This document shows positions 24,233-50,532 of a stretch of 59,836 nucleotides of DNA, one piece after another. The DNA comes from a virus (lineage: Duplodnaviria > Caudoviricetes), in the IMG/VR virus record IMGVR_UViG_3300026184_000061, positions 1 through 59,836 of that record. One strand, written 5' to 3'. Every line of letters starts with the position of its first letter. Position 1 is the stretch's first letter. The notes below the pieces were generated by a model. That model was not told where the DNA came from. It was given only the letters and a program-made list of their open reading frames with translations, and ran no database searches. The position numbers were made by a program, and so were the translations under genes.

Positions 24233-24568
24233 CTAGTCGTACTTCAGTACTCCGTCCCTGTAGTCGGAAAGGATCCGACAGATACGTTGCAGCTTTTCGT
24301 GAATTTCTTCTTGCTGAGGATGCTTCTCCATGCCGGGAACATAGTCGTATTCCGTTACCGTCATCAGGCTTAGCCCATCCACAGTTAATGTACTGCAGTC
24401 TGTGTGGTCGTTCAGCAGAGAAAGGTCTATCTCAGCAAAAGGTTGGGGTAAGCTCGGAGGTTTCAGCGGATCGTGGCACTTGCCGACGACAGCCCTCGTT
24501 TCTTCGTTATAGACTATACCGTATCCGCCGCAGTCACATGGACCTATTACTGCACAGGTGTCGTTCAT
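24233..24568 (-). CDS. Hypothetical protein
   Basis: Overlap-coupled to the DUF3310 gene. Confidence 0.6.
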   Translation of the reverse strand: MNDTCAVIGPCDCGGYGIVYNEETRAVVGKCHDPLKPPSLPQPFAEIDLSLLNDHTDCSTLTVDGLSLMTVTEYDYVPGMEKHPQQEEIHEKLQRICRILSDYRDGVLKYD

Positions 24569-25071
24569 GCTGAGGGCCCCCGCTGGTCTAGATCAGGGTC
24601 TATATACGAAAGCTCAGGTTCTTCGACCGGTTCGTGCAGTACCCGATATGCCACAATGTCCCAGTCGAGATCGTGATGTGCCCAATCCAACCATCGAGAA
24701 GGTCTGTTGGATTTTGATATTGTTCCGTCACGAAACTTGACCTCTACTACGGTGTCGTCCGGTACCGGGGCACGGGAGTCACCCGTCCATGGGGTCCAGT
24801 TCATCGCCCGTGCGACACCCGGAATTTCTTGCTCTCCCTTGGGTTTAGCCACATCTTCCTTCATCTTGGCTTCTTCTACCTCGATGTACTTGTCCAGGAA
24901 GTGCTTGGCTTTGTAAAGATCCTGCAGACCATTCTTGTCCTTCCACCGGCTGACGTACTTGGTGATCTGACCTTGGAAGTAATCAAGGTCATTAGCCGCC
25001 ACGAAGTCCCAATGCTGAATCTTCTGCTTCTTGTAGTGATCGCCGCCAACCTGAGTTTCGTTTGCACCCAT
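24565..25071 (-). CDS. DUF3310 protein (T7 gp1.7-like nucleotide kinase family)
   Basis: QVGGDHYK...FQGQITKYVSRWKDKNGLQDLYKAKHFL. Confidence 0.8.
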   Translation of the reverse strand: MGANETQVGGDHYKKQKIQHWDFVAANDLDYFQGQITKYVSRWKDKNGLQDLYKAKHFLDKYIEVEEAKMKEDVAKPKGEQEIPGVARAMNWTPWTGDSRAPVPDDTVVEVKFRDGTISKSNRPSRWLDWAHHDLDWDIVAYRVLHEPVEEPELSYIDPDLDQRGPSA

Positions 25072-25721
25072 CAGAAATATTCTCCCGGCAATTCGTGAGA
25101 AGGGGTCGACATTTCGACCAGAATCTCGTTTACGGTATAATTGATGTAGTGAAGCATTGCAATGGCCCTCGGAGAAAGCTCGCCCAACTTAGCGGTCATG
25201 GCTCCCAAGCAGTTATTGAACATAGGCCGTACGAACTGATTGCCTAGCATGAGCTGATCGCGACAGAAAAGCATCAGATCAAACGTGTCCGCCCACTTCA
25301 GGATTTGCTGCTCTTCTGGCGTCAAATCATCATAGACCTTGATGCCGTGCCTGTCTAAGAAGGCATCTTCCTCCGCATCAATAGCTTTGCGAATATCTTC
25401 AGACGCCCATTTGATAGTTGCAGGAGCATCTCCTGTATGTTGCTCAGCTATGTCGTGAAGCAGGCAGGCTCGAAGCAGATTGGCACTTGCCTTCCCCTCC
25501 GTCAGCCAAAGAGCCATGACTGCGACGCCGTGACTGTGTTCTGCATTGGTGTGAGTCCCAACGATGTGAGGGACAACATGAGCTCGGCGAACATTCCCAC
25601 CGAACCTGACAACATTGATCCATTCTGGCTTATCCAATTTTCTTTTCTCCTGGGGTTGTAGTCTACGATGAAGCGCGGAAGCCATTTCCAATGCCGCCGC
25701 CTGGGGGGTTTTGTCTGTCAT
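25071..25721 (-). CDS. HD-domain deoxynucleotide phosphohydrolase (YfbR/DatZ-like)
   Basis: R..H...NAEHS, LLHDIAEQHTGD and KWAD motifs. Confidence 0.85.
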   Translation of the reverse strand: MTDKTPQAAALEMASALHRRLQPQEKRKLDKPEWINVVRFGGNVRRAHVVPHIVGTHTNAEHSHGVAVMALWLTEGKASANLLRACLLHDIAEQHTGDAPATIKWASEDIRKAIDAEEDAFLDRHGIKVYDDLTPEEQQILKWADTFDLMLFCRDQLMLGNQFVRPMFNNCLGAMTAKLGELSPRAIAMLHYINYTVNEILVEMSTPSHELPGEYF

Positions 25722-26233: not shown

Positions 26234-26496
26234 GACGTTGTCCTCTTCGTTTTGGTTGATTTCTTGGCTCTCACTTTCTTGCTAACTGCTTCCAGCATTT
26301 CTTCCAGCTTCATACAGGTGGCGCAGTCGCAGTCCTTTGCGTGCACCATGCGCATTCCACGCAGATAGCTTTTTTGCCGTTCTACGATCATAGACGGCAA
26401 TTTCTTTTGAGCTACTTTGATAACGTCCTGCTTCTTACCTGAGATGTTTACCTCCCGTGACCTGGGTGTCGCGGTTGTACTGGCCTTTCGCGGCAT
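26152..26496 (-). CDS. Small basic protein (H..DCDCATC motif)
   Basis: AGGAGG RBS before ATG 26496; Lys/Ser/Arg tail overlaps the next gene. Confidence 0.55.
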   Translation of the reverse strand: MPRKASTTATPRSREVNISGKKQDVIKVAQKKLPSMIVERQKSYLRGMRMVHAKDCDCATCMKLEEMLEAVSKKVRAKKSTKTKRTTSCQPKKPGKKSSPKKGRSSKKSRSRSR

Positions 26497-26992
26497 AGGA
26501 CGCCTCCTGAGGAACAAGTTCATGTTCAAAGAACACCATCTGACCGATCTTCATGCCAAGCTCAATGATCAGATGATGGTGCGTGACGTTCTTGAATTCC
26601 ATGGTCAGCACCGAGCCATGCCACCCCGCATCGCACCACCCCGCCAGCATGTGCTGAAGACCGTTGCGGGCCAGCGTAGACTTCAGCTTATACTCAGCGC
26701 TGATGTATCGCGGCAGGTGGAAGACCTGCTCTGTCTGCGCCAAAATGAAGTCGCCCGGCGCTAAGATGTACTGACTTGCTTCTTCCGTCAGGACACAGGG
26801 TTTCAGCTTGATAGATTCCTTTGCGGCCAAGTTCACCATTCTCTCGTGGTATGCCTCAGGCTGTACTTCGGCTAGTATATGCTTACCTAGCGTTAAGTCA
26901 ATCGATGCCGAATTAACGTGTTCCGGCCTGGAATTTTCAATGACGCCTTCCTTGATGAGAAGAAGCAGTTGGTTATGGCTGAGTAACGACAT
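26435..26992 (-). CDS. dcd: dCTP deaminase
   Basis: NSASIDLTLG, LKSTLARNGL, AGWCDAGWHG.LTME, IGQMVF and YAAKGQY. Confidence 0.9.
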   Translation of the reverse strand: MSLLSHNQLLLLIKEGVIENSRPEHVNSASIDLTLGKHILAEVQPEAYHERMVNLAAKESIKLKPCVLTEEASQYILAPGDFILAQTEQVFHLPRYISAEYKLKSTLARNGLQHMLAGWCDAGWHGSVLTMEFKNVTHHHLIIELGMKIGQMVFFEHELVPQEASYAAKGQYNRDTQVTGGKHLR

Positions 26993-27225: not shown

Positions 27226-27450
27226 CTAATCCTTGACTCGGCCGCAAAGTTTATAGAGAAACTTGAATCCTATGTTCTCCGGATATTTATCCAGACCGCA
27301 CTTCTCGCAACACCACGCATCACCCATGCCCCCACCGCCGGTTTTGAATCGATGCCAACAGAACCCTTGATTATGCCCGAACCAGAAAATTACAGCGGAC
27401 ACCAACATTAGTGCCCACCACGCGAGCCAGTACATATACGGATTAGGCAT
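27226..27450 (-). CDS. Small membrane protein with CxxC
   Basis: N-terminal TM; overlap-coupled. Confidence 0.5.
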   Translation of the reverse strand: MPNPYMYWLAWWALMLVSAVIFWFGHNQGFCWHRFKTGGGGMGDAWCCEKCGLDKYPENIGFKFLYKLCGRVKD

Positions 27451-28462
27451 TCAGATTCTCCTTCGCTTTCAAGCGGCGTTCAAGCCACTGTACCATCGCT
27501 ATCGTCCAATCGACGTAGTGCGGCATGTGATGCTTTATGATTTCCAGTGCAGAACGAGTGTCGCCGCTCTTATGTCTGAACCACGCTTCGTGGGCGGGTA
27601 ATGCGACCACCCGGAAAAACGGTTCCTTGAAATGACTGGGATCCCAGATACCTGCTTCTGAGTCTATGAAGAACTGTTGTAGTTCGTCATCCCAGCATTT
27701 TGGATTCACTATCAGCGGTATAGGATTTGCACCGAGCTTTTCATATACACTCGTATCCGCGCTAGAAGGACGTATATCTTTCAAAGCGGCCCACAACGGA
27801 TTGTCTACGTAGACATGCAACGAATCTGAGATTTGCCGGTACTCCCCCACTTCCACGCCTACCATCGCTGCGATGTATTCTTGCAGCATGGAAAACTGGA
27901 CTATGTTGGCGCCGTAAGCACCCCAGATGAGATCATTGCTACGACAACAGACAGTCATGTGCAGTCTGCGCTCGCGGATCTTGAAGAAGATCATGTCATT
28001 GCAGGGTATGTCCTTACTTTCTACGTTTAGATCAAGAGTAGGTTTCCATATCGTCAGCACAGCCCGACGAGTGCTGTGTTCCCTGTGCAGCAAATCAATG
28101 ATTTCTTCTATCTGATCTATGTTGTGTGCGGAGCGTAGACGGTAGCCGTAGGGTGCATGGAAGATAAGGCCGTCGTCACTGTACGCCTTCATCTGCTGAT
28201 TGAACTGTGCCAGCCACTTGACATCAGCGCGACCACGCAAAATCCACAAAGATTCCATCAGGTGGAAAAAAGGGTTGGCGTTACGTGCGGCATTGAACAG
28301 AACGCGCTGCTTAGGAAGCTCGTACACCGTACACACCGGCTCACTGAATTCCAGCGTTTTCTGGCCATCTCTTGGGGCTATGGTTCGCGCCGTGTCTTCT
28401 TGCAGCATTTGGATGGCCTTTGGCAACGCTTCGTTGACATCATGCGCTCGGATTACAATCAC
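27443..28462 (-). CDS. dUMP hydroxymethylase (thymidylate synthase family)
   Basis: NPFFHLMESLW, YGYRLR, TRRAV, DIPCN and RSNDLIWGAYGAN..QFS. The Asn specificity residue and GxxGAN spacing match hmdU phages as I recall them. Confidence 0.85.
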   Translation of the reverse strand: MIVIRAHDVNEALPKAIQMLQEDTARTIAPRDGQKTLEFSEPVCTVYELPKQRVLFNAARNANPFFHLMESLWILRGRADVKWLAQFNQQMKAYSDDGLIFHAPYGYRLRSAHNIDQIEEIIDLLHREHSTRRAVLTIWKPTLDLNVESKDIPCNDMIFFKIRERRLHMTVCCRSNDLIWGAYGANIVQFSMLQEYIAAMVGVEVGEYRQISDSLHVYVDNPLWAALKDIRPSSADTSVYEKLGANPIPLIVNPKCWDDELQQFFIDSEAGIWDPSHFKEPFFRVVALPAHEAWFRHKSGDTRSALEIIKHHMPHYVDWTIAMVQWLERRLKAKENLNA

Positions 28463-29395
28463 CTAAATTCTCCTTTCTAATTGCTTATACAGCTTTTTCA
28501 CGCGCTTCTTCAATTGACTGCGAAAATCTTTTGCAAACCGTTCGTATTGAATCTCAGCGATGAGTTTGGATTTGGGCAGGAATTTTTCTACATCCTTAGG
28601 TCCCGCCACTATAAAATCCTTTACATCAAAGCCTGCTCGCATCAGCGTCGGCGCTGCTTCTTCGTCTATGAACTGAGCCACCTTGGCGGCCAAGCATTCA
28701 TAGAATCTGTTAGCGGGGGAGCAGTAGTAGCGATGGCTGTACTCATCCTCCATGTAGACAGTAGCGCGGTAATGTTGTAAATCTTGCAACAAGTTTCGCA
28801 TCGGACCGAGCGCGTTTATCTTTTTGTCCAGCCCCAAAAATTTTTTCTTGGCTTGCGCTGAAGAAGACGTGGTTACTTCGTACGACGTACTGGCTAGGTA
28901 TTTTTCCAAGTCCGCTTTGCGACCTTCCCGAAATGCTCCGTAGTAGAATAACCCCGGCTCTCGGTACCTATGCTGGACGAAGGTTTTGAATCGTTCAAAG
29001 GGCAGCGCATTCCAATTGACATAGGCGCTTTCCGGCGTACGAAGCTTGTGTTCCACAGTCCCCCACACGATAGGGGGCCGCAAGACTCCTCGGTCATCCA
29101 TCCAACCTTTCTTGCGCATTACCTTACCCACTTGCGATGGAGGCGCAATCGTGTAGTCGTTCTGGATGAATACGAAAGTCTTAGCTTTGCGTACCATCTC
29201 AGCCATTTCTTCACGCCAGTTGCAGAAGGCAGGCGGTCCGTTCACCATAAGAATGACGTCGTTCTTTTCGGCCTTGCCTGTACTCCTGTCCTTGATATCC
29301 AACCCCAAGGTTTCGGCCAGGAACTTAGCAATATTGATACTTGCCAACGTGCTGTTTCCATCTACCTTCGTGGGGTGAGTTATAATAGCCTTCAC
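28463..29395 (-). CDS. T4 DNA beta-glucosyltransferase-like GT-B glycosyltransferase
   Basis: YYGAFREGRK, NRFYECLAAKVAQFIDEE, ILMVNG and FIQND align by eye with T4 BGT YGGSFRSGQR, LRVWETMASDAVMLIDEE, LIVVNS and YLFTD (from memory). Confidence 0.8.
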   Translation of the reverse strand: MKAIITHPTKVDGNSTLASINIAKFLAETLGLDIKDRSTGKAEKNDVILMVNGPPAFCNWREEMAEMVRKAKTFVFIQNDYTIAPPSQVGKVMRKKGWMDDRGVLRPPIVWGTVEHKLRTPESAYVNWNALPFERFKTFVQHRYREPGLFYYGAFREGRKADLEKYLASTSYEVTTSSSAQAKKKFLGLDKKINALGPMRNLLQDLQHYRATVYMEDEYSHRYYCSPANRFYECLAAKVAQFIDEEAAPTLMRAGFDVKDFIVAGPKDVEKFLPKSKLIAEIQYERFAKDFRSQLKKRVKKLYKQLERRI

Positions 29396-29396
29396 G

Positions 29397-30179
29397 TTAT
29401 TCCTCCAGCTTCAATTGTCTGGTCAGCTTACGTAGATTCTTCGCCAGGGTGGAGTCTAGTTTGTCCGCTTCATACCACGTCATCGGCGTGGATTTACGAA
29501 ACCCCGTACCGCGATTGGCCGCAGGAAGTACCGGCATGTCTACCTTCTCCAGCCCGGCTTTGCGAAGCATCCCCAGCCACTTCTTTTCCATGTCTTTCAG
29601 ACGAATAGTTTCGTCACAATTATCGCGGCAGTTCTTCATCATTTCATAAGTGACTTGAAGACATCGCAGATCTTTCGGGCGTACATAGGGGTCGTCCAGC
29701 AACCCTACTTCTGACATCCATTCATAAGTGGTCAAAGGAAAAATTTTCGCCATACTGCGAGCCACTTCCAGCGGATGACGAACAAGGTTTACGATGTACT
29801 GTGCATCGAAGTCCCCTGCGCGTTCACCTACGTGAACTGTACGTTGGTCCTTCACCCACGAATGATACGGATACCAATGGTGATCGCACTGGAAATACAG
29901 AGAAACAGTGCCGTCCTTGCCGACGTATTCGTGCCCTATGTCGAATCCAGCCGCTTGCAACGTGCGGGCAAGCCACGTTGTTCCGCATCGGCCAGTACCT
30001 ATGACAGCCAGCGGAATACGGATAGAACCGCGAAGCTTGTCTACTCCCCATCGCTCCACCTTTGTACCGCTCTTGTTAGCTGCTTCCGTATTCTCGTAAC
30101 GCCATACTTTACGACCGCTATGATGGGGGGAGAGGATTTCCGGCTTTATTTGAACTCTTCTAAGGTCAGTCATGATCAC
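29397..30179 (-). CDS. PAPS-dependent sulfotransferase
   Basis: 5'-PSB loop VIGTGRCGTTWL, GHE, and 3'-PB motif LVRHPLEVARS. Confidence 0.8.
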   Translation of the reverse strand: MIMTDLRRVQIKPEILSPHHSGRKVWRYENTEAANKSGTKVERWGVDKLRGSIRIPLAVIGTGRCGTTWLARTLQAAGFDIGHEYVGKDGTVSLYFQCDHHWYPYHSWVKDQRTVHVGERAGDFDAQYIVNLVRHPLEVARSMAKIFPLTTYEWMSEVGLLDDPYVRPKDLRCLQVTYEMMKNCRDNCDETIRLKDMEKKWLGMLRKAGLEKVDMPVLPAANRGTGFRKSTPMTWYEADKLDSTLAKNLRKLTRQLKLEE

Positions 30180-31021
30180 TTCGCTCCTGGATACTTGCTT
30201 CGCGGACGACCTTCGTTATTCTTGGTACGCATGTACTTGTCGAACTCGCACAGGCAATTCTGCAGATTCTGCGCATCCAAGAAGGGCATCTTCTTTTCAG
30301 CGATGAAATCCTGAACCAGAGTGTGCAGTGCCATCAATCTATCACGCCACGCATCTTCTAACCAGGGACTCTCTGGAGGTAGCCCGATAACCCGATTCAA
30401 TCCGCGCCGACTGCCCGGTCCGCTTGCAGCCCAATACTTCCAGTCTTTAGCTTTCTTAAGGACACCGACATGCTTTGTGTCGGCGATGACCTGCGCCGCG
30501 ATGAAGCTGCCCATGCCGTCATACTGCATCAATCGTTCGTGGAAATCGTTTAGAGTATCTCCTTTCTGAGGGCGCAACCTATTCCTGTCTCGCCACAAAG
30601 GCGTCAAAACATGGGTGGCAAGATATTCTGCCTTGTCCATAGCATTCCCATTGGTAGATACGATGTACGCACCGCTGAAAACTTTTTCACGACGCTTCTT
30701 ACGATCGTGCATCACTTTGATAAACTTCTTCGGATTCCACGGTACGGGGTAGCCTATTTCTTCCAGCGTGTCAGGCCAATTGACCAGACGGGCCACGGCC
30801 ATTGCGAACCAGACGTCAGGATCCTTAGCATTCGGCTTCAGCCAATGTTTGTGAATCCACTGCGTAACTGTGTCGTCTTCACGGTAGACGTTACAGAAGC
30901 GATAAGACTGCAAGATCGTGTCTTGCGTCCAAGGTTTAGCACTTCCACAACGACGACGCAGTAGAATACTATACCGTTCTTCTATCCAGTACAGAAGCTT
31001 TTGAAACATGTCTTTCTTCAT
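30176..31021 (-). CDS. 5-hmdU DNA kinase family protein (aGPT-Pplase1)
   Basis: PWTQDTILQSYRFCNVYREDD, FSGAYIV, GMGSFIAAQVIAD, GPGSRRGL and QNCLCEFDKY. Confidence 0.88.
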   Translation of the reverse strand: MKKDMFQKLLYWIEERYSILLRRRCGSAKPWTQDTILQSYRFCNVYREDDTVTQWIHKHWLKPNAKDPDVWFAMAVARLVNWPDTLEEIGYPVPWNPKKFIKVMHDRKKRREKVFSGAYIVSTNGNAMDKAEYLATHVLTPLWRDRNRLRPQKGDTLNDFHERLMQYDGMGSFIAAQVIADTKHVGVLKKAKDWKYWAASGPGSRRGLNRVIGLPPESPWLEDAWRDRLMALHTLVQDFIAEKKMPFLDAQNLQNCLCEFDKYMRTKNNEGRPRSKYPGAK

Positions 31022-32052
31022 TTTTGTACCTTCACAAATGTTTGGTTGATGAGACGCCAGACAACGCTTTTAGCAATTCCACGAGACTTCGCTTCCATGA
31101 TCAGTTCTTCAACGGTGATTCCTTTCTTTTTCTTTGCTACAACACCGCACAAAGTTTCCAAAGGAGTGCCGGGCTTCGCCTCCTTTTCACCCGGCATCAT
31201 TACTATCTCATCTCCTGTCAGTACGCTCCAATCCACCTTTCCGAGTGGTGCAACCTGACCCATCTTCCGACCGGGCTTTGATTTGGCAGACACAAGCTTT
31301 TTCTTCTTTTCTTCAGCAGTGCGGCGCGGTTTCTTACCCTTGTTAGCGCGACGAGCTTGGGCGGCACGCTGCCTTTCTTCCTTGGCGGCTTCTCGTTTAG
31401 CCAGTCTGTCGGCCTTCTTTTTCTCTCGCTCAGCCTGCTTGGCTTCGCGACGCGCTTCCTTGCGTTCAGCACCCGAAAGATGGGTATACGATACCGTCGG
31501 ATTGGCCGTGCGCGGTTCCGTGTAGGTTTTATTTGGGTCTTCATTATTTCTAAACTCCAAATGAGGTTCTAGTTTAGCGTAGTCAGATATTCCGCAATGG
31601 CCAATGCGAATATCTTCCCACACTCCCAGCAGGGCAAACACAACATTCTTCGTTCTGTCGTACAGCACACTGAGCAGTTCGTCTTCCTTTGCTTTCACAC
31701 CTAAGTCTTCTAGAAGTGCGACATGTTGGCTGGGAATCAACCCCCCGATACGAGCTTTTAATTGATTTACCCAATTCCAATCTCCGGCCGGATCTGTACG
31801 GTCGTAAAGAGGAACCGACATGTGCTGTCGTAAAACGTACACTGCTTCTTCAACGCTACGAACGTCGGCCTCTGCTGCCGGGTTTTTTCTTGCCAGCGAC
31901 TTTTTTCTTGCTGGAGACTTTTTTCTTACCGGCGACTTTTTTCTTACCGGCGACTTTTTTCTTACCGGTGACTTTTTTGCGGCCGCCCTTTTTCTGGACG
32001 ACTGCACTTTCGCTTTCGTCTTCTGTGAACTTACTTGTTTTCGCGCGGCCAT
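31018..32052 (-). CDS. Basic protein with histone H1-like KKSPVR repeats
   Basis: GAGG RBS before ATG 32052; first gene of the modification block; about 200-nt overlap with the helicase 3' end. Confidence 0.7.
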   Translation of the reverse strand: MAARKQVSSQKTKAKVQSSRKRAAAKKSPVRKKSPVRKKSPVRKKSPARKKSLARKNPAAEADVRSVEEAVYVLRQHMSVPLYDRTDPAGDWNWVNQLKARIGGLIPSQHVALLEDLGVKAKEDELLSVLYDRTKNVVFALLGVWEDIRIGHCGISDYAKLEPHLEFRNNEDPNKTYTEPRTANPTVSYTHLSGAERKEARREAKQAEREKKKADRLAKREAAKEERQRAAQARRANKGKKPRRTAEEKKKKLVSAKSKPGRKMGQVAPLGKVDWSVLTGDEIVMMPGEKEAKPGTPLETLCGVVAKKKKGITVEELIMEAKSRGIAKSVVWRLINQTFVKVQK

Positions 32053-33595
32053 TAGGGGCACCTCTTCTAAACGAAATATTGTACCTCTGTTCCATTGCTT
32101 CTAGGAACGCTTTTTGTTGATCATCTTTTGCTTCACGCACCTTGATAACAACTTCATCAATAGTGCCTAGCGCCGTAGGGTGGTGGACACGAATCCTGGG
32201 AACTTTGACGCCTTGACGCCATACCCTCTGCAAGAACTGTTCATAATCTTCTAGGTTATAAGTTTCCGTAAAGATATAGATGTTCGAGCAGGTCCCCTCT
32301 TGCAGATTGAGCCCATGCGCGATGGAAGCTGGATTACCTGCTAAGTAGGGGAGTTCTCCGCGATTCCATTGGTCGCAGATCTTATCTGCTTCCTTATCGC
32401 TAACCCCACCACCGATGTACGGCATGTCTGGAAATATCTTGCGGATACGTTCAATTTCATGCGTATATTCGTAAGCGATAAGTAAAGGCTCACCTTGAAG
32501 TTCTTCAATGATTTCTTCCAGATCCGCCAACTTTTCTTCGTGGATTTCTAGCACCTTATGATGCTTGTCGTAAATAGCACCGCCTGTGAACTGACGTAAC
32601 TTACCTGTAGCGACAGCCGCGTTACTGGCTACGATAACCCCTTTTTCCACCTCCAAAATAAACTCTTCTTCTAGCTCCTTGTACTTTTTCATCGTTTCCT
32701 CGGAGAACTCCAAGGCTCGCGGTACATGCACAAGGGGAGGCAGATCCAACTCTTCGTTACCATAGCGAACTACGATGTCGCCAATAGCATCGTAAATCTG
32801 TTCCTCTGCGCCAGGCAAAATTTTGAAGTCATAGCCCATATACCCTGATGGGTAGAAGTAGCGGTTGCGGTACTGCGTGATGTACGCACCTAGTCTCTGA
32901 CCGCCGTCCATCATGTAGACCTGCCCAAAAATGTCCATTAGATTCTTAGGCACCGGCGAGCCCGTTAGAAGATTGATATACTTCACTGGATGCTTTTTAT
33001 CATGCACCATCTTACGGAGCATTTTGAATCGCTTAGTCTTTGTGTTTTTAATTTTACTGGATTCGTCAAACACAATCATGTCGAAGAATTCGCCCATAGC
33101 TATGCGATGCTTCTTCAACGTGCGTTGCAGCCATTCCAACCCTTCGTAGTTAATTAAGAAGACGTCGGCATTAGATTCTAGCAAACGACCTTCTTTGTGG
33201 GGTCCGTGCAGGATAGTCGTGACCCACGGCAGCATCCATTTATCAGCTTCCTTGGGCCATACGTTATATACGATACGTCGCTTCGCTACGACCAGCATGC
33301 GACGGACATGCCCGAGCTTACGGCGTAATCCGTAGATGCTGTAAGTAATCATGGTCTTTCCAAGACCAGGAGCTAAGAAAAAAGCTGCGGACGGCCGCGA
33401 AACGCCGAACCGAATAGCTTCTTCCTGATACTTGTGCGGTACGAATCGCTGAGCCTTTTTAGGAGTGTGTTCGCCTTCCAAGACTCGGTCACTGCGTTTT
33501 ACGTGCGCTGCTTTTTTCTTTGCGACGCGCTTTTTTCTTGAAGCGTTCGTAGATTTCGAGCGCTTCTTCGTAGGTGTCGACCGTCCAAACGCCAT
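31856..33595 (-). CDS. SNF2-family helicase
   Basis: PHKYQ, APGLGKT, INYEGL, FDESS, LTGSP, HGLNLQ and QRVWRQG. Confidence 0.92.
   Translation of the reverse strand: MAFGRSTPTKKRSKSTNASRKKRVAKKKAAHVKRSDRVLEGEHTPKKAQRFVPHKYQEEAIRFGVSRPSAAFFLAPGLGKTMITYSIYGLRRKLGHVRRMLVVAKRRIVYNVWPKEADKWMLPWVTTILHGPHKEGRLLESNADVFLINYEGLEWLQRTLKKHRIAMGEFFDMIVFDESSKIKNTKTKRFKMLRKMVHDKKHPVKYINLLTGSPVPKNLMDIFGQVYMMDGGQRLGAYITQYRNRYFYPSGYMGYDFKILPGAEEQIYDAIGDIVVRYGNEELDLPPLVHVPRALEFSEETMKKYKELEEEFILEVEKGVIVASNAAVATGKLRQFTGGAIYDKHHKVLEIHEEKLADLEEIIEELQGEPLLIAYEYTHEIERIRKIFPDMPYIGGGVSDKEADKICDQWNRGELPYLAGNPASIAHGLNLQEGTCSNIYIFTETYNLEDYEQFLQRVWRQGVKVPRIRVHHPTALGTIDEVVIKVREAKDDQQKAFLEAMEQRYNISFRRGAPNGRAKTSKFTEDESESAVVQKKGGRKKVTGKKKVAGKKKVAGKKKVSSKKKVAGKKKPGSRGRRS
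31880..31978. repeat. 18-bp tandem repeat (about 5.5 copies) read in two frames
   Basis: GACTTTTTTCTTACCGGC units; encode KKSPVR in one gene and KKKVAG in the overlapping helicase. Confidence 0.85.
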
Positions 33596-40315: not shown

Positions 40316-41194
40316 TTAGCGAGAGTACTTATTGCGCCCAGCGCCTCTTTTCTTGGACGCAGTTTTCTTCGCGGTGGACTTCTTCTTGGCCGCCCCCTTC
40401 TTCTTTCCTCGAGCAGGCTTGCTCGCAGGTTCCGCACCGTAGTTTTCAGTGTTGAAGGGCTGCATAATCAGTTCTCGGGCTTCCGCCCGACGTTCTGCGA
40501 TAACGGCCAAGGCCGCCGGTTTGTTGATGACGTCGACCAGTTCCGGTACGATAATATCGTAATCAGCTTCCTCGTCAAACGCCAGCCGAGTGATGACGCC
40601 GTAGCTCGGGCGATGAACGGTCTTTTCCAGCTTCTTGACATAACCGCTCCAGTGCTTCACGCTGGTAGGAGCCAGCGACACCATCGCTACGTCGGCATCT
40701 TCCAGTTCGTCTACCCATTCCAGCAGAGCCAGCCGACGGCCATTCTTACAGGCTTTGCCTCGGCCGCCGTCAGGGTCCGACCCCCACTTGTTATACTCGC
40801 ATTCGGCGCAGGTATCCGCTTGCGGCTCAGGTGAACTCGGATGGGGGGCCATGTCCTCGCCGTCCTCGCTGATAGCGAAACAGCAGGGAGGCTGCGGGTT
40901 GTCGGGGTCGAATTTCGCTCCGCAATAGTATGAGTTGACGTAACTGAAATCCAGTACGGCCACGTCCATCGCATCGCCGATAACGTCCCCCTGATAGGAG
41001 AACTTACCGTTACGAGTGGAGATGCTGTGGCCCGTGCCGCCGGACTGTTCGCGCGACGAATCAGCTGATGCATCTTCAGCCAGCTTGCGCTCCCAGTCCT
41101 GCATTGACATCAGTTCCTTACCACTTCCCCGCTTAGAAGCGGATTTCTTCGAAGCAGTCTTTTTCTTCGAAGCAGTCTTTTTCTTCGTTGCCAT
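40316..41194 (-). CDS. Putative ssDNA-binding / replication accessory protein with basic tails
   Basis: PCCFA...P.P....C.EC.YN.WGS...GKACKN.RRLA; KKKTAS repeats at both ends. Confidence 0.7.
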   Translation of the reverse strand: MATKKKTASKKKTASKKSASKRGSGKELMSMQDWERKLAEDASADSSREQSGGTGHSISTRNGKFSYQGDVIGDAMDVAVLDFSYVNSYYCGAKFDPDNPQPPCCFAISEDGEDMAPHPSSPEPQADTCAECEYNKWGSDPDGGRGKACKNGRRLALLEWVDELEDADVAMVSLAPTSVKHWSGYVKKLEKTVHRPSYGVITRLAFDEEADYDIIVPELVDVINKPAALAVIAERRAEARELIMQPFNTENYGAEPASKPARGKKKGAAKKKSTAKKTASKKRGAGRNKYSR

Positions 41195-41221
41195 TCAGTT
41201 GAATCCTCTTTAGCTGAAGCC

Positions 41222-41256
41222 AAGAAAAACGGGCCAGCGATGCGCACCGCCGACCC
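41222..41256 (-). terminator. Intrinsic terminator
   Basis: GGGUCGGCGGUG / CAUCGCUGGCCC stem (with G-U pairs) followed by GUUUUUCUU on the - strand. Confidence 0.6.
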
Positions 41257-41271
41257 GCCTAGTGAAGACAG

Positions 41272-41706
41272 TTACTCAGTCACCGTTTCGGTGCCGGTGT
41301 CGCTGCCGCTGCCGCTGAACTTGCTGCGTCCGGTGGACTTCGCCTTGGACGTAGACTTCTTCGAGGTGGATTTTTTGGACGTCGACTTCTTGGAAGTCGC
41401 TTTCTTCTTAGAAGCTGCCTTCTTACCGGCGGACTTCTTCGCTGCGGCCTTTTTCTTCCCTGAGGCCTTTTTACCACCACCCGACGGTTCCACGGACCCG
41501 CCCGCCTTTTCCAAGGCCGCAACGGCTTTGTTGAAAGCATTGCCACACGCGACCAATTCCTTGAGACCATCCTTCATGGCAGCCTCGTTTTCCTTGGTCG
41601 GTTCGTTGGCGTATGCCTTCACCGAAGCGATAACCTCCTTACGGATGGCGGTCTTGTCCTTTCGGGTCTTCCGAACGGTGGCACGCAGTTCTCGAACATC
41701 GCTCAT
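41272..41706 (-). CDS. Histone H1-like basic protein
   Basis: AAGGAG RBS; KKAAAKKSAGKKAASKKKATSKKSTSKK. Confidence 0.75.
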   Translation of the reverse strand: MSDVRELRATVRKTRKDKTAIRKEVIASVKAYANEPTKENEAAMKDGLKELVACGNAFNKAVAALEKAGGSVEPSGGGKKASGKKKAAAKKSAGKKAASKKKATSKKSTSKKSTSKKSTSKAKSTGRSKFSGSGSDTGTETVTE

Positions 41707-43523: not shown

Positions 43524-43718
43524 TCAGTGGCTTGCAGCGTTGACCAACGCTCGCGGGGTTCCGCAGATAAAGCGGGTTTGCTGGTATACGAAAATGTGAC
43601 TGTCAGCTACGCACTGACGCGCGATGTTACGTTGCGCATTGTCCCAGCCCCATGAATACAGTACATAGGCCAGGACAATGGCGAGTATTAGGTAGAAAAT
43701 AGACTTCACGGCTTCCAA
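43524..43718 (-). CDS. Small membrane protein
   Basis: N-terminal TM and two Cys. Confidence 0.55.
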   Translation of the reverse strand: MEAVKSIFYLILAIVLAYVLYSWGWDNAQRNIARQCVADSHIFVYQQTRFICGTPRALVNAASH

Positions 43719-44269
43719 CCCCCCTTTCGCAAGTCCGCCAAGATGTCTTCCTTTTTAGCAGTGGTCTTGTCTGCAGGCGCGTGAAGATTATCCAGATACC
43801 GAGCAAATTCCGGCATCTTCTTTCGGACTTCGTCCACGGTGGAGCACTCTCTTAACAGGTTACGCACTTTGGTGCGAATAGCGTATCGACGTGACTGCTG
43901 TTCTCTATACTTCACACCCATCAACTTGACCTGAGCCTCTACCGCTTTAGGGGGTACGAAAGACATCTTCGCTCCCTCGCTCGCAAACCCTCTTTCTCTC
44001 ACTTCGTCTTCCGTATCTTTTGGATAAATCTTCACTCCTGTGAGAAAAACATCGCCGAGGAATGTGTGGGTGTTATACCGCACTACCTGCAGATAGCCGC
44101 GAAGCTCGGGGTCGTCGTACAACTTAGCCACTTCCTTCGGCATCTGTGTTCTCGCCGAGCTTTGCAACAGTTCCGTCGCTTCGGCACGGTAATCAGTTTC
44201 AGGCAAGTCGTCCAAGACCGCCTTCAGTATCAATGAACGTAGCTTTTCATTCAGCTTACCTTTTAACAT
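43706..44269 (-). CDS. Nmad5-like (nucleotide-modification-associated domain 5) protein
   Basis: KLNEKLRSLILKAVLDDLP.TDY, TVDEVRKKMPEFARYL and ADLRKGGW. Confidence 0.65.
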   Translation of the reverse strand: MLKGKLNEKLRSLILKAVLDDLPETDYRAEATELLQSSARTQMPKEVAKLYDDPELRGYLQVVRYNTHTFLGDVFLTGVKIYPKDTEDEVRERGFASEGAKMSFVPPKAVEAQVKLMGVKYREQQSRRYAIRTKVRNLLRECSTVDEVRKKMPEFARYLDNLHAPADKTTAKKEDILADLRKGGWKP

Positions 44270-44280
44270 TGTTCGTTCTC

Positions 44281-45153
44281 CTATATTTGTGGAGTATGGG
44301 TGTGGCCAGCTTCCTCGTCCAACTGTGTGGCGCAGTTACTGATGACTCTCAGCGCATCTTCCTTGCTGAAGGTGTCGCCCGGTATGTGTAAAATGTGTCC
44401 CGCGTCGCGAACAATGCGCGGGACATGGTTGGCCAACGGATAGCCGAAATGATAGTGGATATCTTCCGGCTGCGAAGCGAGGGACCTGAACACGAAGCCA
44501 CGAAAAGCGGCTGTACTGGTCATCACGGCAACATACTCAAGGTCCATCATATCGTCGAAGTCCTTGATGAGATAGGAAATCACGACTCTTCTACCAAATC
44601 TTGGTATCAAGTCATGCACCGGAGTGACCGCCCAAAGCTGCACGTTTCGCCCGCTAGAAATCAGCATGTCTACCAAAGCAGCCGCTGCGAATCCTCTCCA
44701 GCGAGCCTGCTCAGCCGGTACGTAGCCGCTAGCAACCAAGTTCACTAGAATGACAGCGTTATTACTGCCATGCTGATTATGCGCTTCTCGCTCCGTGGTC
44801 TGCCACGCACGGTCCAGGTTGCCGCTGTACACCCGTTGTATGTCCAGGAAATCTCCTGCATTAGAAAACTGCCTGCGGCGACGGGCTGAACGAATTTGCG
44901 CGAACTGTGGCGTAGCTTCGGCCAGTTCGTTACGAATGATTTCCGCACCTTCCGGCCAACCTACCTTCACCTTGTTCAGAAGCTCTGCAAATCCTCCTTG
45001 CCACCCCCACCAACTCGTCTGGAGATTATCTGCTTCTCGCTGCCAGCGCCTTTTATTGGCGTAGGTTGCGCCGTCTAGGTTTTCCTTCATCAAGTCTTCG
45101 ATAGAATCGTAGGAGATTTCCCGCGCGTCGCTATACTCTTCTACACGTTTCAT
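44281..45153 (-). CDS. VWA-like partner of the MoxR/CobS ATPase
   Basis: GDFLDIQRVYSG, ILVNLVASG and FRGFVF; directly downstream of the AAA gene. Confidence 0.65.
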   Translation of the reverse strand: MKRVEEYSDAREISYDSIEDLMKENLDGATYANKRRWQREADNLQTSWWGWQGGFAELLNKVKVGWPEGAEIIRNELAEATPQFAQIRSARRRRQFSNAGDFLDIQRVYSGNLDRAWQTTEREAHNQHGSNNAVILVNLVASGYVPAEQARWRGFAAAALVDMLISSGRNVQLWAVTPVHDLIPRFGRRVVISYLIKDFDDMMDLEYVAVMTSTAAFRGFVFRSLASQPEDIHYHFGYPLANHVPRIVRDAGHILHIPGDTFSKEDALRVISNCATQLDEEAGHTHTPQI

Positions 45154-45165
45154 AGCAGCGTTCTC

Positions 45166-46410
45166 CTATAAAAGTTCGTCGTGGTCTACCTTAGACCGCT
45201 CGTTATCAGACCAATCTGCGAAGTAAACCTCGCGCACCTTTTCCAATTCCCACACACCCGCTTCAAGGGCTTTTGTAGCGTCGATGAGAAACCGGGTAGA
45301 CATCACCCGGCGAAGCTTGTGAGAACGAATGGCGCTACGGATACTAAGCCCCCACTTCAGCACGTCAGGATGAACCAGGGTCTGCTCCACCTTGGGGCTA
45401 TAATCCATGTGAATGACGCCGGACCGGAAGCGGTCCAAGGTGGCCGCGTCCAACTGATTGCGACCCACGAACATCATATCTGCTCCGTTGCCGTAGGTGT
45501 TACCAGCCGCGATGAGAACGAAGTCCTTATGCTTCGTCACCTTCGGCTTCTTGTACCGCTGCGGAATGAAGAAGTGGTCGTTGGCGATGGCCTGATTGAT
45601 ATACACCATCGTGTTCGGGTCCGCTGCATCCACTTCATCCAGCAGAAACACGCCGCCGTTCTCGTACATATCCACGAAAGACGACTGCACGTATTCAAAG
45701 CGACCGCTGGCTCCGGTGGGCAGCAACCATCCAATAAGCATGGATTCGCTCATGCCTGCGGAGCAGGAAATGGAAGCAAATCGACGCTTCATGGCGACCG
45801 CTACCTGCTCGCTGATAAAAGTCTTACCACACCCGGACGGACCCACGAGCATCAGGTTATAGCCCAATGACGCGCGTTGCAGGATGTCTTCGAATTCTTC
45901 AGGCATCGTGTGCTTCATACGAACGCCCGTCTTTGCCTTGGGCTGAACGATATTCAGCTTGCGGTAAGTCTTAGACGCTTCGGCCAGCGCCTGTTCCGCT
46001 TCCTTTTTCAGAAGTGTGCTGACCTTGGTAACGGCGTTCTGTATCGCAGATTCCACTTCAGACTTGGCGTCGCTACCAACCACTTCTTCGTGAACGATTT
46101 TACGAAGCAATTCTTCGTCCACTTCGGCGACCGGCTGGTCCGGTTTGTCGCTGTCCAATTGCAGCAGCTTATAACTGCGCACTTTGTCATATACTTCGCG
46201 GAACTTGTTCGGGTCTTGTTCTTGGATACGAAGGAGCATATCAACCTTCGCCTGCTTCTTAGCGGGGTGCCTGCGCACCTGCACGCCCAGACTTTCCAGC
46301 ATCAGGCGAAGCTTATACTGCACCAGACGACCAAGGTCAAATTCACAGACTCCGTCCCGAGCAGCTTCATTGACCTTATCTTCTTGCGTTTTGAAATCAC
46401 CGAATTTCAT
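45166..46410 (-). CDS. MoxR/CobS-like AAA+ ATPase
   Basis: GPSGCGKT, LLDEVD, AAGNT.G.GAD and GRNQLDAATLDRF. Confidence 0.9.
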   Translation of the reverse strand: MKFGDFKTQEDKVNEAARDGVCEFDLGRLVQYKLRLMLESLGVQVRRHPAKKQAKVDMLLRIQEQDPNKFREVYDKVRSYKLLQLDSDKPDQPVAEVDEELLRKIVHEEVVGSDAKSEVESAIQNAVTKVSTLLKKEAEQALAEASKTYRKLNIVQPKAKTGVRMKHTMPEEFEDILQRASLGYNLMLVGPSGCGKTFISEQVAVAMKRRFASISCSAGMSESMLIGWLLPTGASGRFEYVQSSFVDMYENGGVFLLDEVDAADPNTMVYINQAIANDHFFIPQRYKKPKVTKHKDFVLIAAGNTYGNGADMMFVGRNQLDAATLDRFRSGVIHMDYSPKVEQTLVHPDVLKWGLSIRSAIRSHKLRRVMSTRFLIDATKALEAGVWELEKVREVYFADWSDNERSKVDHDELL

Positions 46411-49917: not shown

Positions 49918-50532
49918 TCAGGCTCCTTTCTTGAAGGGATGTGCCGACGCTTTAATGAGTATCTTATCCATCAGCACGCCGATGATTGAATGGATGTGAC
50001 TGTCCAGATCGCCGGCGGCTGTGTTCAGGTATATATCCGGCTCCATCGGCGCTTCGTACGGTGCGTCCAGGCCGGTCAGCCCCTCTACGTCACCCATTTC
50101 CGCACGGGCGTACAACCCTTTCGGATCTCGGCTGGCGCACACACGCACGGGCGCATCGCAGTGAACCTCAAGGAAGTCCTTACCGAACAGCTTGCGCACT
50201 TCTTCTCGGTCGCGGGAGTATGGCGACACCATCGCTACGATTGTAATAGTACCCACACGGAGGAACTGATTGGCTACGGCAGCCACGCGCCGCACCGCTT
50301 CGTGTCGGTCAAGGCGTTGGAATCCCAGATCGCGGTTCAGATCTTCTCGGAGTTCGTCACCGTCTAGAACCGTTGACTTGAGCCCCATATCAAACAGCAG
50401 TTGGTCCAGCGCCTGCGCAATCGTGGTCTTCCCCGAAGCGGGTAGTCCCGTGAGCCAGACGATACAACCTCGGTGCTGATTGGCCTGCTCATGACTTTCG
50501 CGAACGTTGCGTACTTCTTCAGTCATTATCAA
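49918..50532 (-). CDS. cysC: Adenylyl-sulfate (APS) kinase
   Basis: VWLTGLPASGKTTIA, LDGDELR, LGF...DR, VSPY..DR, RDPKGLY and TGLDAPYEAP. Confidence 0.95.
   Translation of the reverse strand: MIMTEEVRNVRESHEQANQHRGCIVWLTGLPASGKTTIAQALDQLLFDMGLKSTVLDGDELREDLNRDLGFQRLDRHEAVRRVAAVANQFLRVGTITIVAMVSPYSRDREEVRKLFGKDFLEVHCDAPVRVCASRDPKGLYARAEMGDVEGLTGLDAPYEAPMEPDIYLNTAAGDLDSHIHSIIGVLMDKILIKASAHPFKKGA

Follow-up and report, generated by a model that had tools for sequence, protein, structure and literature searches.

In the base hypermodifications known from phages, the attached groups are sugars, amino acids, amines, or phosphate. In phage M6, the 5-hydroxymethyldeoxyuridine (hmdU) kinase is gp54 (PF18748) and a protein of family PF18723 is encoded by a separate gene, gp55, which was dispensable, the product being still formed in reactions without it (Lee et al., PMC8989533, main text). 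The ParB-linked dioxygenases of phages are described as thymine-oxidizing enzymes that produce 5-hydroxymethyluracil (hmU) on the DNA (PMC13229309, main text). Here, we analyzed four open reading frames (ORFs), ORF1 to ORF4, at 27443-31021 of the virus record IMGVR_UViG_3300026184_000061 (Duplodnaviria; Caudoviricetes), whose entire sequence of 59,836 nt is referred to as the window. This cluster combined a hydroxymethylase (ORF4), a glycosyltransferase (ORF3), and a sulfotransferase (ORF2) with a relative of M6 gp55 (ORF1). Judging by gene presence, family and fold assignments, and co-occurrence, sulfated glycosyl-hmU in DNA was the best model, and we regard it as moderately probable; that sulfate is present on the DNA in any form appears likely.

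The assignment of ORF2 was based on fold and motifs. When its AlphaFold2 model (predicted local distance difference test score, pLDDT, 85.8) was compared with 48,161 chains, the best 11 matches were all sulfotransferases (top Z 10.2, root-mean-square deviation 4.1, 173 aligned residues), and the ESM Atlas neighbors of ORF2 that carry a Pfam label were sulfotransferases as well. ORF2 contains the elements GTGRCGTT and R132-x-P134...S140, which we take to match the 5′-phosphosulfate-binding (5′-PSB) and 3′-phosphate-binding (3′-PB) motifs for 3′-phosphoadenosine 5′-phosphosulfate (PAPS), along with a conserved H81/E82 pair and a basic N-terminal extension. Conservation was 94-100% for G59, R62, G64, T65, H81, E82, R132, P134, and S140 across 50 aligned relatives (R62, 48/50; R132, 50/50; S140, 48/50). 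A quick tree of ORF2, in which 30 of 63 branches were unresolved, was set aside. Fold and motifs thus confirmed the PAPS-dependent sulfotransferase that an earlier note on this DNA had proposed, and sulfuryl transfer from PAPS is predicted. ORF2 had no match among 50,697 GenBank phage records, and GTDB genomes yielded 8 weak loci, none with a close relative; therefore, no cultured carrier is known. Nothing significant was obtained in PDB sequence searches with ORF2 profiles, and one run of a DNA pattern scan gave no match. Three sulfotransferase relatives (P0040, P0048, and P0038) carried 90-200 additional residues at the N-terminus, for which Pfam gave no match.

Nine distinct loci, including the window, scored below 1e-50 on the ORF2 family profile. 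L048 and L049 were dropped as too short and L167-L170 were counted as one, and seven genomes with readable context were kept (the window, G001-G004, G020, and G029). The close ORF2 relative lay inside an hmU-making cluster in all seven (Table 1), with an ORF4 relative providing the route to hmU in six and a ParB protein with a TET/JBP dioxygenase in one (G020). Each cluster also contained a glycosyltransferase: one of the ORF3 family (named GT3) in the window, G002, G020, and G029, TAGT in G003 and G004, and, in G001, a GT-B-like protein that scored under the Pfam cut-off. ORF1 relatives were found in 6/7 genomes and not in G020 (89% complete). Because ParB-linked dioxygenases act on DNA, the substrate in G020 would be polymer DNA, and two unrelated hmU routes, the hydroxymethylase of the window type and the ParB-TET/JBP pair, appear to have recruited the same sulfotransferase and glycosyltransferase. 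No C5 methyltransferase was found in the four genomes searched, G020 among them. The distant sulfotransferases had an ORF1 relative at 1 and an ORF4 relative at 0 of 116 loci (redundant, many short) at the threshold used. Three pairs of an ORF2-relative and an ORF3-relative protein in Logan came from contigs of equal size (53601, 4484, and 2522), which suggests further co-occurrence.

The cassette of G020 was compact, with all genes in series. At L058:6772-10600, close to terminase genes, a distant sulfotransferase adjoined a GT-B-like gene and one of family PF18723; the flanks contained no hydroxymethylase.

Judged from its sequence, ORF4 is a deoxyuridine monophosphate (dUMP) hydroxymethylase of the M6 gp58 type, in agreement with the earlier note. 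Identity to gp58 extended across the full length, a motif was shared with the M6 enzyme, and the best PDB match was the CMP 5-hydroxymethylase, ranked above thymidylate synthases. Asn versus Asp at the uracil-specifying position is the substrate rule of these hydroxymethylases. Because ORF4 has an Asn aligned near the Asp of the cytosine enzyme and dcd is located nearby, dUMP is the expected substrate. By analogy with M6, hmU probably replaces thymine in the phage DNA, and the HD hydrolase would shape the deoxynucleoside triphosphate pool.

For ORF3, the top six Foldseek matches of the AlphaFold2 model (pLDDT 95.4) were all T4 β-glucosyltransferase (BGT; E 2.4e-9, TM-score 0.64-0.68). Its Atlas neighbors were PF09198 clusters, and ORF3 itself had no Pfam match to PF09198. 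The predicted structure thus confirmed the T4 BGT-like glycosyltransferase of GT-B fold that had been proposed. An ORF1 or ORF4 relative flanked the ORF3 relative at 47 of 80 viral loci, or in 31 of the 48 clusters formed at 80% identity, and the remaining loci were in many cases short; therefore, the GT3 family is a common partner of hmdU synthesis. The same 80 loci included an ORF1 relative in 41, a radical SAM gene in 31, and a sulfotransferase in 5, and 18 of the 20 GT3 genomes searched (larger contigs picked from these loci) had no sulfotransferase. That GT3 often occurred without a sulfotransferase, and the sulfotransferase always with a glycosyltransferase, fits sulfation as a tailoring step downstream of glycosylation.

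A cluster of an ORF1 relative, GT3, a radical SAM/SPASM gene, and a hydroxymethylase was frequent in L128-L190 (for example, L129, L134, L148, and L161), which suggests another undescribed tailoring of glycosyl-hmU. Distant GT3 relatives were also found in cultured phages, Escherichia phage vB_EcoM_IME392 (L211:4301-9933) and EP_H11, adjoining a PIG-L deacetylase, PF18723, a P-loop protein, and a thymidylate synthase-like gene. The DNA of both phages is likely modified, possibly with an amino sugar.

The cysC gene of the window scored well above the curated cut-off for adenylylsulfate (APS) kinases (TIGR00455, 213.2 vs. 138.7 bits), and a cysC match was present in 6 of the 50,697 GenBank phage records. 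By its profile scores, it is a full APS kinase, which probably supplies PAPS. PF01583 exceeded its cut-off in 3/7 sulfotransferase genomes and 0/18 GT3-only genomes (Fisher test, P = 0.015); the association weakened to P = 0.07 without the weak G003 fusion and to P = 0.054 or 0.25 without the window. The link between cysC and the sulfotransferase is thus plausible and suggestive, not firmly established. A survey of sulfotransferase, cysC, and hmdU synthase co-occurrence had been suggested earlier; it placed the sulfotransferase in hmU clusters in 7/7 genomes, and its cysC part remained suggestive (P = 0.015, or 0.05-0.25 when stricter). Where an APS kinase gene is absent, host PAPS could serve. 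PAPS reductase was found in none of the five genomes searched, and a single-protein locus scan with the cysC query gave no match.

An APS-kinase-like domain was fused to a cytidylyltransferase-like (HxGH) nucleotidyltransferase in L045:973-1848 (minus strand; G003), and stood beside one in L167:11103-11985 (G020), both being sulfotransferase phages. The pair could be a minimal PAPS synthase, with weak profile scores.

The sole domain match of ORF1 was PF18723, and its M6 counterpart was gp55, which we take to be the protein labeled aGPT-Pplase clade 1. The Pfam name of this family, “5-hmdU DNA kinase, helical domain,” appears misleading for ORF1, and such naming would yield false kinase calls. 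The earlier assignment of ORF1 to the 5-hmdU DNA kinase family was therefore rejected: ORF1 matched gp55 through PF18723 only, and not the P-loop kinase gp54. The kinase family PF18748 had no match in the complete window genome or in any of the seven sulfotransferase genomes, and the same was found for the amino acid:DNA transferase family PF18724, with M6 as a positive control for both. Because ORF1 is of the gp55 type and both families were absent (0/7 each), no gene stands behind the phosphorylation step of the earlier proposal. Its other components, hmdU, sugar, and sulfate, were supported by the folds, the motifs, the 7/7 contexts, and the independent TET/JBP locus.

ORF1 is probably a general accessory of hmdU phages. 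Its Cys258 was invariant in the 7/7 aligned PF18723 proteins and may be catalytic: it aligned weakly and not significantly (E 0.059) with Cys247 of the transferase gp51, a residue catalytic in the PaMx11 amino acid:DNA transferase (PMC11472151, main text). A PDB sequence search with the ORF1 profile gave nothing significant, and a single-protein locus scan with ORF1 gave no match. In ORF1 and L004:11950-12810, the sequence around this Cys was LQNCLCEFDKY, and in the other five aligned proteins it was IEH[ST]LCE; the Glu/His pair preceding the invariant Cys was thus replaced in the former two.

According to the best model, dcd and the HD hydrolase would feed dUMP to ORF4 before replication, and the resulting hmdU monophosphate would place hmU instead of thymine in new DNA. 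After replication, ORF3, like T4 BGT, would transfer a sugar from a nucleoside diphosphate (NDP)-sugar to the hydroxymethyl group of hmU, presumably yielding a base J-like glycosyl-hmU. ORF2 would then move sulfate from PAPS onto a sugar hydroxyl; this donor class is predicted from fold and motifs, and a sugar is the proposed acceptor because ORF2 was constantly paired with glycosyltransferases. The phage CysC would convert host APS to PAPS, and ORF1 would participate as the general hmdU-phage accessory. The bulky anionic group would block restriction, CRISPR, or sugar-recognizing nucleases, an anti-restriction or armor role that is probable by analogy with known phage hypermodifications. It is also fairly likely that a clade of phage PAPS-sulfotransferases installs an O-sulfated base (sulfo-glycosyl-hmU or sulfooxymethyl-U) and represents a portable module, serving hmU routes that act before replication (dUMP hydroxymethylase) as well as after it (ParB-TET/JBP), and that some phage cysC genes are explained as DNA-modification genes and not as genes of sulfur metabolism.

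Several results weigh against sulfated glycosyl-hmU. The context sample was small (n = 7), and APS kinase was not found in 4/7 sulfotransferase genomes, 3 of these 4 being rated 57-62% complete. The APS-kinase-like gene of G020 was short and below the TIGR00455 cut-off (71.7 vs. 138.7), that of G003 was a weak 28-bit fusion, and ATP sulfurylase was found in 0/5 genomes searched. In L205, a 30% complete record outside the set of 18 GT3-only genomes, a distant GT3 relative had a good APS kinase nearby, and no sulfotransferase was found. The structural Z of ORF2 was moderate, with kinases next; Foldseek with its model gave no match at E ≤ 0.001, although the top ranks were still sulfotransferases; and its score was below the Pfam gathering score (PF13469, 21.7 vs. 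27 bits), so that ORF2 appears to represent a divergent clade and not a member of the curated family. The partner glycosyltransferases belonged to three families, and a single sugar-specific acceptor is thus not obvious. This variation would fit an acceptor other than one specific sugar, and ORF2 might sulfate the hmU hydroxyl directly in place of the missing kinase (PF18748, 0/7). The 5-sulfooxymethyl-dU would be either the end product at sugar-free sites or a leaving group displaced by the ORF1 Cys, as amino acid:DNA transferases do with phospho-hmU, which would make use of the ORF1 relatives in 6/7 genomes and of their invariant Cys. We consider direct sulfation rather unlikely: the Cys alignment with gp51 was not significant, gp55 is dispensable in M6, no ORF1 relative accompanies the sulfotransferase of G020, ORF1 relatives were common in sulfotransferase-free GT3 loci (41/80, compared with 5/80 for the sulfotransferase), and the glycosyltransferase in 7/7 clusters would be left unexplained.

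The sugar of glycosyl-hmU also competes, as the acceptor, with molecules other than DNA, such as a glycan of the virion or the host, a protein, or an NDP-sugar or nucleotide in free form. Small molecules, peptides, and glycans are the substrates of the best structural matches of ORF2, and distant phage sulfotransferases can occupy glycan-type loci, as in L006, where one adjoins a capsule/GT9/methyltransferase fusion. In G004, moreover, kinase-like, phosphatase-like, and NTP-transferase genes lie between the glycosyltransferases and the sulfotransferase and may make a nucleotide sugar of their own; if an NDP-sugar were sulfated before transfer, the DNA would be sulfated all the same. Such acceptors seem unlikely given that the close relatives were located among DNA-modifying genes in 7/7 genomes and not in virion modules, and that they were more basic than the distant ones (median net charge per 100 aa, +4.7 vs. 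+2.7, P = 0.002, uncorrected for kinship). P-loop kinases have the same fold as sulfotransferases, and dephospho-CoA and shikimate kinases appeared from rank 12 (Z 7.8) in the structural comparison; with the canonical hmdU kinase missing, ORF2 could itself be a kinase or a transferase of another kind and produce phospho-hmU or a phospho-sugar. This is very improbable: kinases aligned over only 109-129 residues, compared with 151-206 for sulfotransferases, the Arg/Thr of the 5′-PSB and the R-x-P...S of the 3′-PB were conserved, the Walker A motif GxxxxGK[ST] occurred in 0/156 ORF2 family proteins, and the genome carries the rare cysC. Sulfation of glycosyl-hmU therefore remained the best model.

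The window spans an entire virus record, which carries direct terminal repeats and was rated 100% complete. A soil metagenome, the one sequencing run listed for it, may be its source; no RNA run was listed. Capsid and baseplate genes were on the plus strand, and the polymerase A, helicase, and primase genes, which match those of M6 and relatives, were on the minus strand. The cluster ORFs were tightly coupled: the ORF4-ORF3 gap was 0 nt, the ORF3-ORF2 gap was 1 nt, and ORF2 was separated by 2 nt from ORF1 if started at ATG or overlapped it by 4 nt if started at the alternative GTG at 30179. Fewer promoter-like sites were found than in shuffles. The coordinates and coupling of the four genes, the dcd, HD hydrolase, and DUF3310 genes downstream, and cysC were all as the earlier note had described.

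Table 1 Features of the window and gene content of the related clusters
Feature	Position	Strand	Basis or content
ORF1, PF18723 helical protein, M6 gp55 orthologue	30176..31021	-	PF18723 154 bits; 34% to M6 gp55
ORF2, PAPS-dependent sulfotransferase fold, 258 aa	29397..30173	-	Predicted structure, PAPS motifs
ORF3, T4 BGT-like GT-B glycosyltransferase (GT3)	28463..29395	-	Foldseek of model; Atlas PF09198 clusters
ORF4, dUMP hydroxymethylase (thymidylate synthase superfamily)	27443..28462	-	43% to M6 gp58
dcd, dCTP deaminase (dUTP supply)	26435..26992	-	PF22769 108 bits; phrog_1663
HD nucleotide hydrolase, M6 gp59 relative	25071..25721	-	PF12917/PF01966; 39% to M6 gp59
DUF3310 protein, M6 gp61 relative	24565..25071	-	Profile match and M6 similarity
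cysC, adenylylsulfate (APS) kinase	49918..50532	-	PF01583 199 bits; TIGR00455 213 bits; 19 kb from cluster
G001 cluster			ORF1 relative, GT-B-like, sulfotransferase, radical SAM, hydroxymethylase
G002 cluster (spans circular join)			ORF1 relative, GT3, sulfotransferase, hydroxymethylase
G003 cluster			Sulfotransferase, TAGT, ORF1 relative, hydroxymethylase
G004 cluster			ORF1 relative, GT-B-like ORF without Pfam match, TAGT, three sugar-nucleotide-type genes, sulfotransferase, hydroxymethylase
G029 cluster			Gene order nearly as in the window
G020 cluster	L167:7801-11985		ParB, TET/JBP dioxygenase, sulfotransferase, GT3, short APS-kinase-like, cytidylyltransferase-like nucleotidyltransferase; directly before terminase genes

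Elsewhere in the window, an ORF at 43706-46410 (minus strand) had a weak match to nucleotide modification associated domain 5 (Nmad5; 26.1 bits vs. a cut-off of 27) and adjoined two larger uncharacterized ORFs, one with a P-loop. Several ORFs of the replication region (31018-32061 and 40316-41706, minus strand) carried lysine-rich, histone-like repeats (KKSPVR, KKVAG, and KKST), and similar low-complexity basic/acidic proteins were found in relatives between the helicase gene and the PF18723 gene.

If the model is correct, base hypermodification would gain a new chemical class, the sulfate ester introduced by an enzyme that depends on PAPS, and ORF2 would be the first DNA-acting sulfotransferase as far as the literature was searched. 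That search returned no phage DNA sulfotransferase or sulfated base; most subscription papers were outside its scope, and an earlier computational mention is possible. By term search, no sulfotransferase appeared in the main texts of PMC13326640, PMC11472151, PMC13458397, and PMC8989533. The enzyme would also allow hmU or glycosylated bases to be labeled in a new way, and the results caution against interpreting the cysC genes of phages as auxiliary genes of the sulfur cycle.

Compared with M6/YuA, ViI, and phiW-14 (Lee et al., PMC8989533, main text), the window showed the same M6-type hydroxymethylase, HD hydrolase, DUF3310, and gp55-type protein in similar order, and would share with them the modular post-replicative tailoring of hmU; instead of the PF18748 kinase and PF18724 transferase, it has a BGT-like glycosyltransferase and a sulfotransferase. 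The phage TET/JBP (5mYOX) glycosylation pathways (Pyle et al., bioRxiv 10.1101/2023.12.21.572611; PMC13229309) are approached by G020, where ParB and TET/JBP adjoin the same sulfotransferase and glycosyltransferase families, and by the TAGT partners in G003 and G004, whereas the main texts of these two sources, searched for “sulf” (supplements being outside the scope), do not mention a sulfotransferase. With the glucosyl-hydroxymethylcytosine of T4 and the base J of trypanosomes, the window shares a sugar predicted on a 5-hydroxymethylpyrimidine and, in ORF3, a GT-B fold nearest to T4 BGT, but its acceptor would be hmU made before replication, ORF3 is only 14% identical to BGT, and a sulfation step would be added. 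The PAPS-dependent sulfotransferases (the Synechococcus OLS/CurM ST domain and TPST1/2) have in common with ORF2 the fold, the 5′-PSB, the 3′-PB, and an Arg and a Glu approximately 20 residues apart, which have catalytic roles in TPST/CurM. ORF2 is 12-16% identical to these enzymes and differs from them in its own HVGER-x-x-D motif, its basic N-terminal extension, and its predicted nucleic-acid-linked acceptor.

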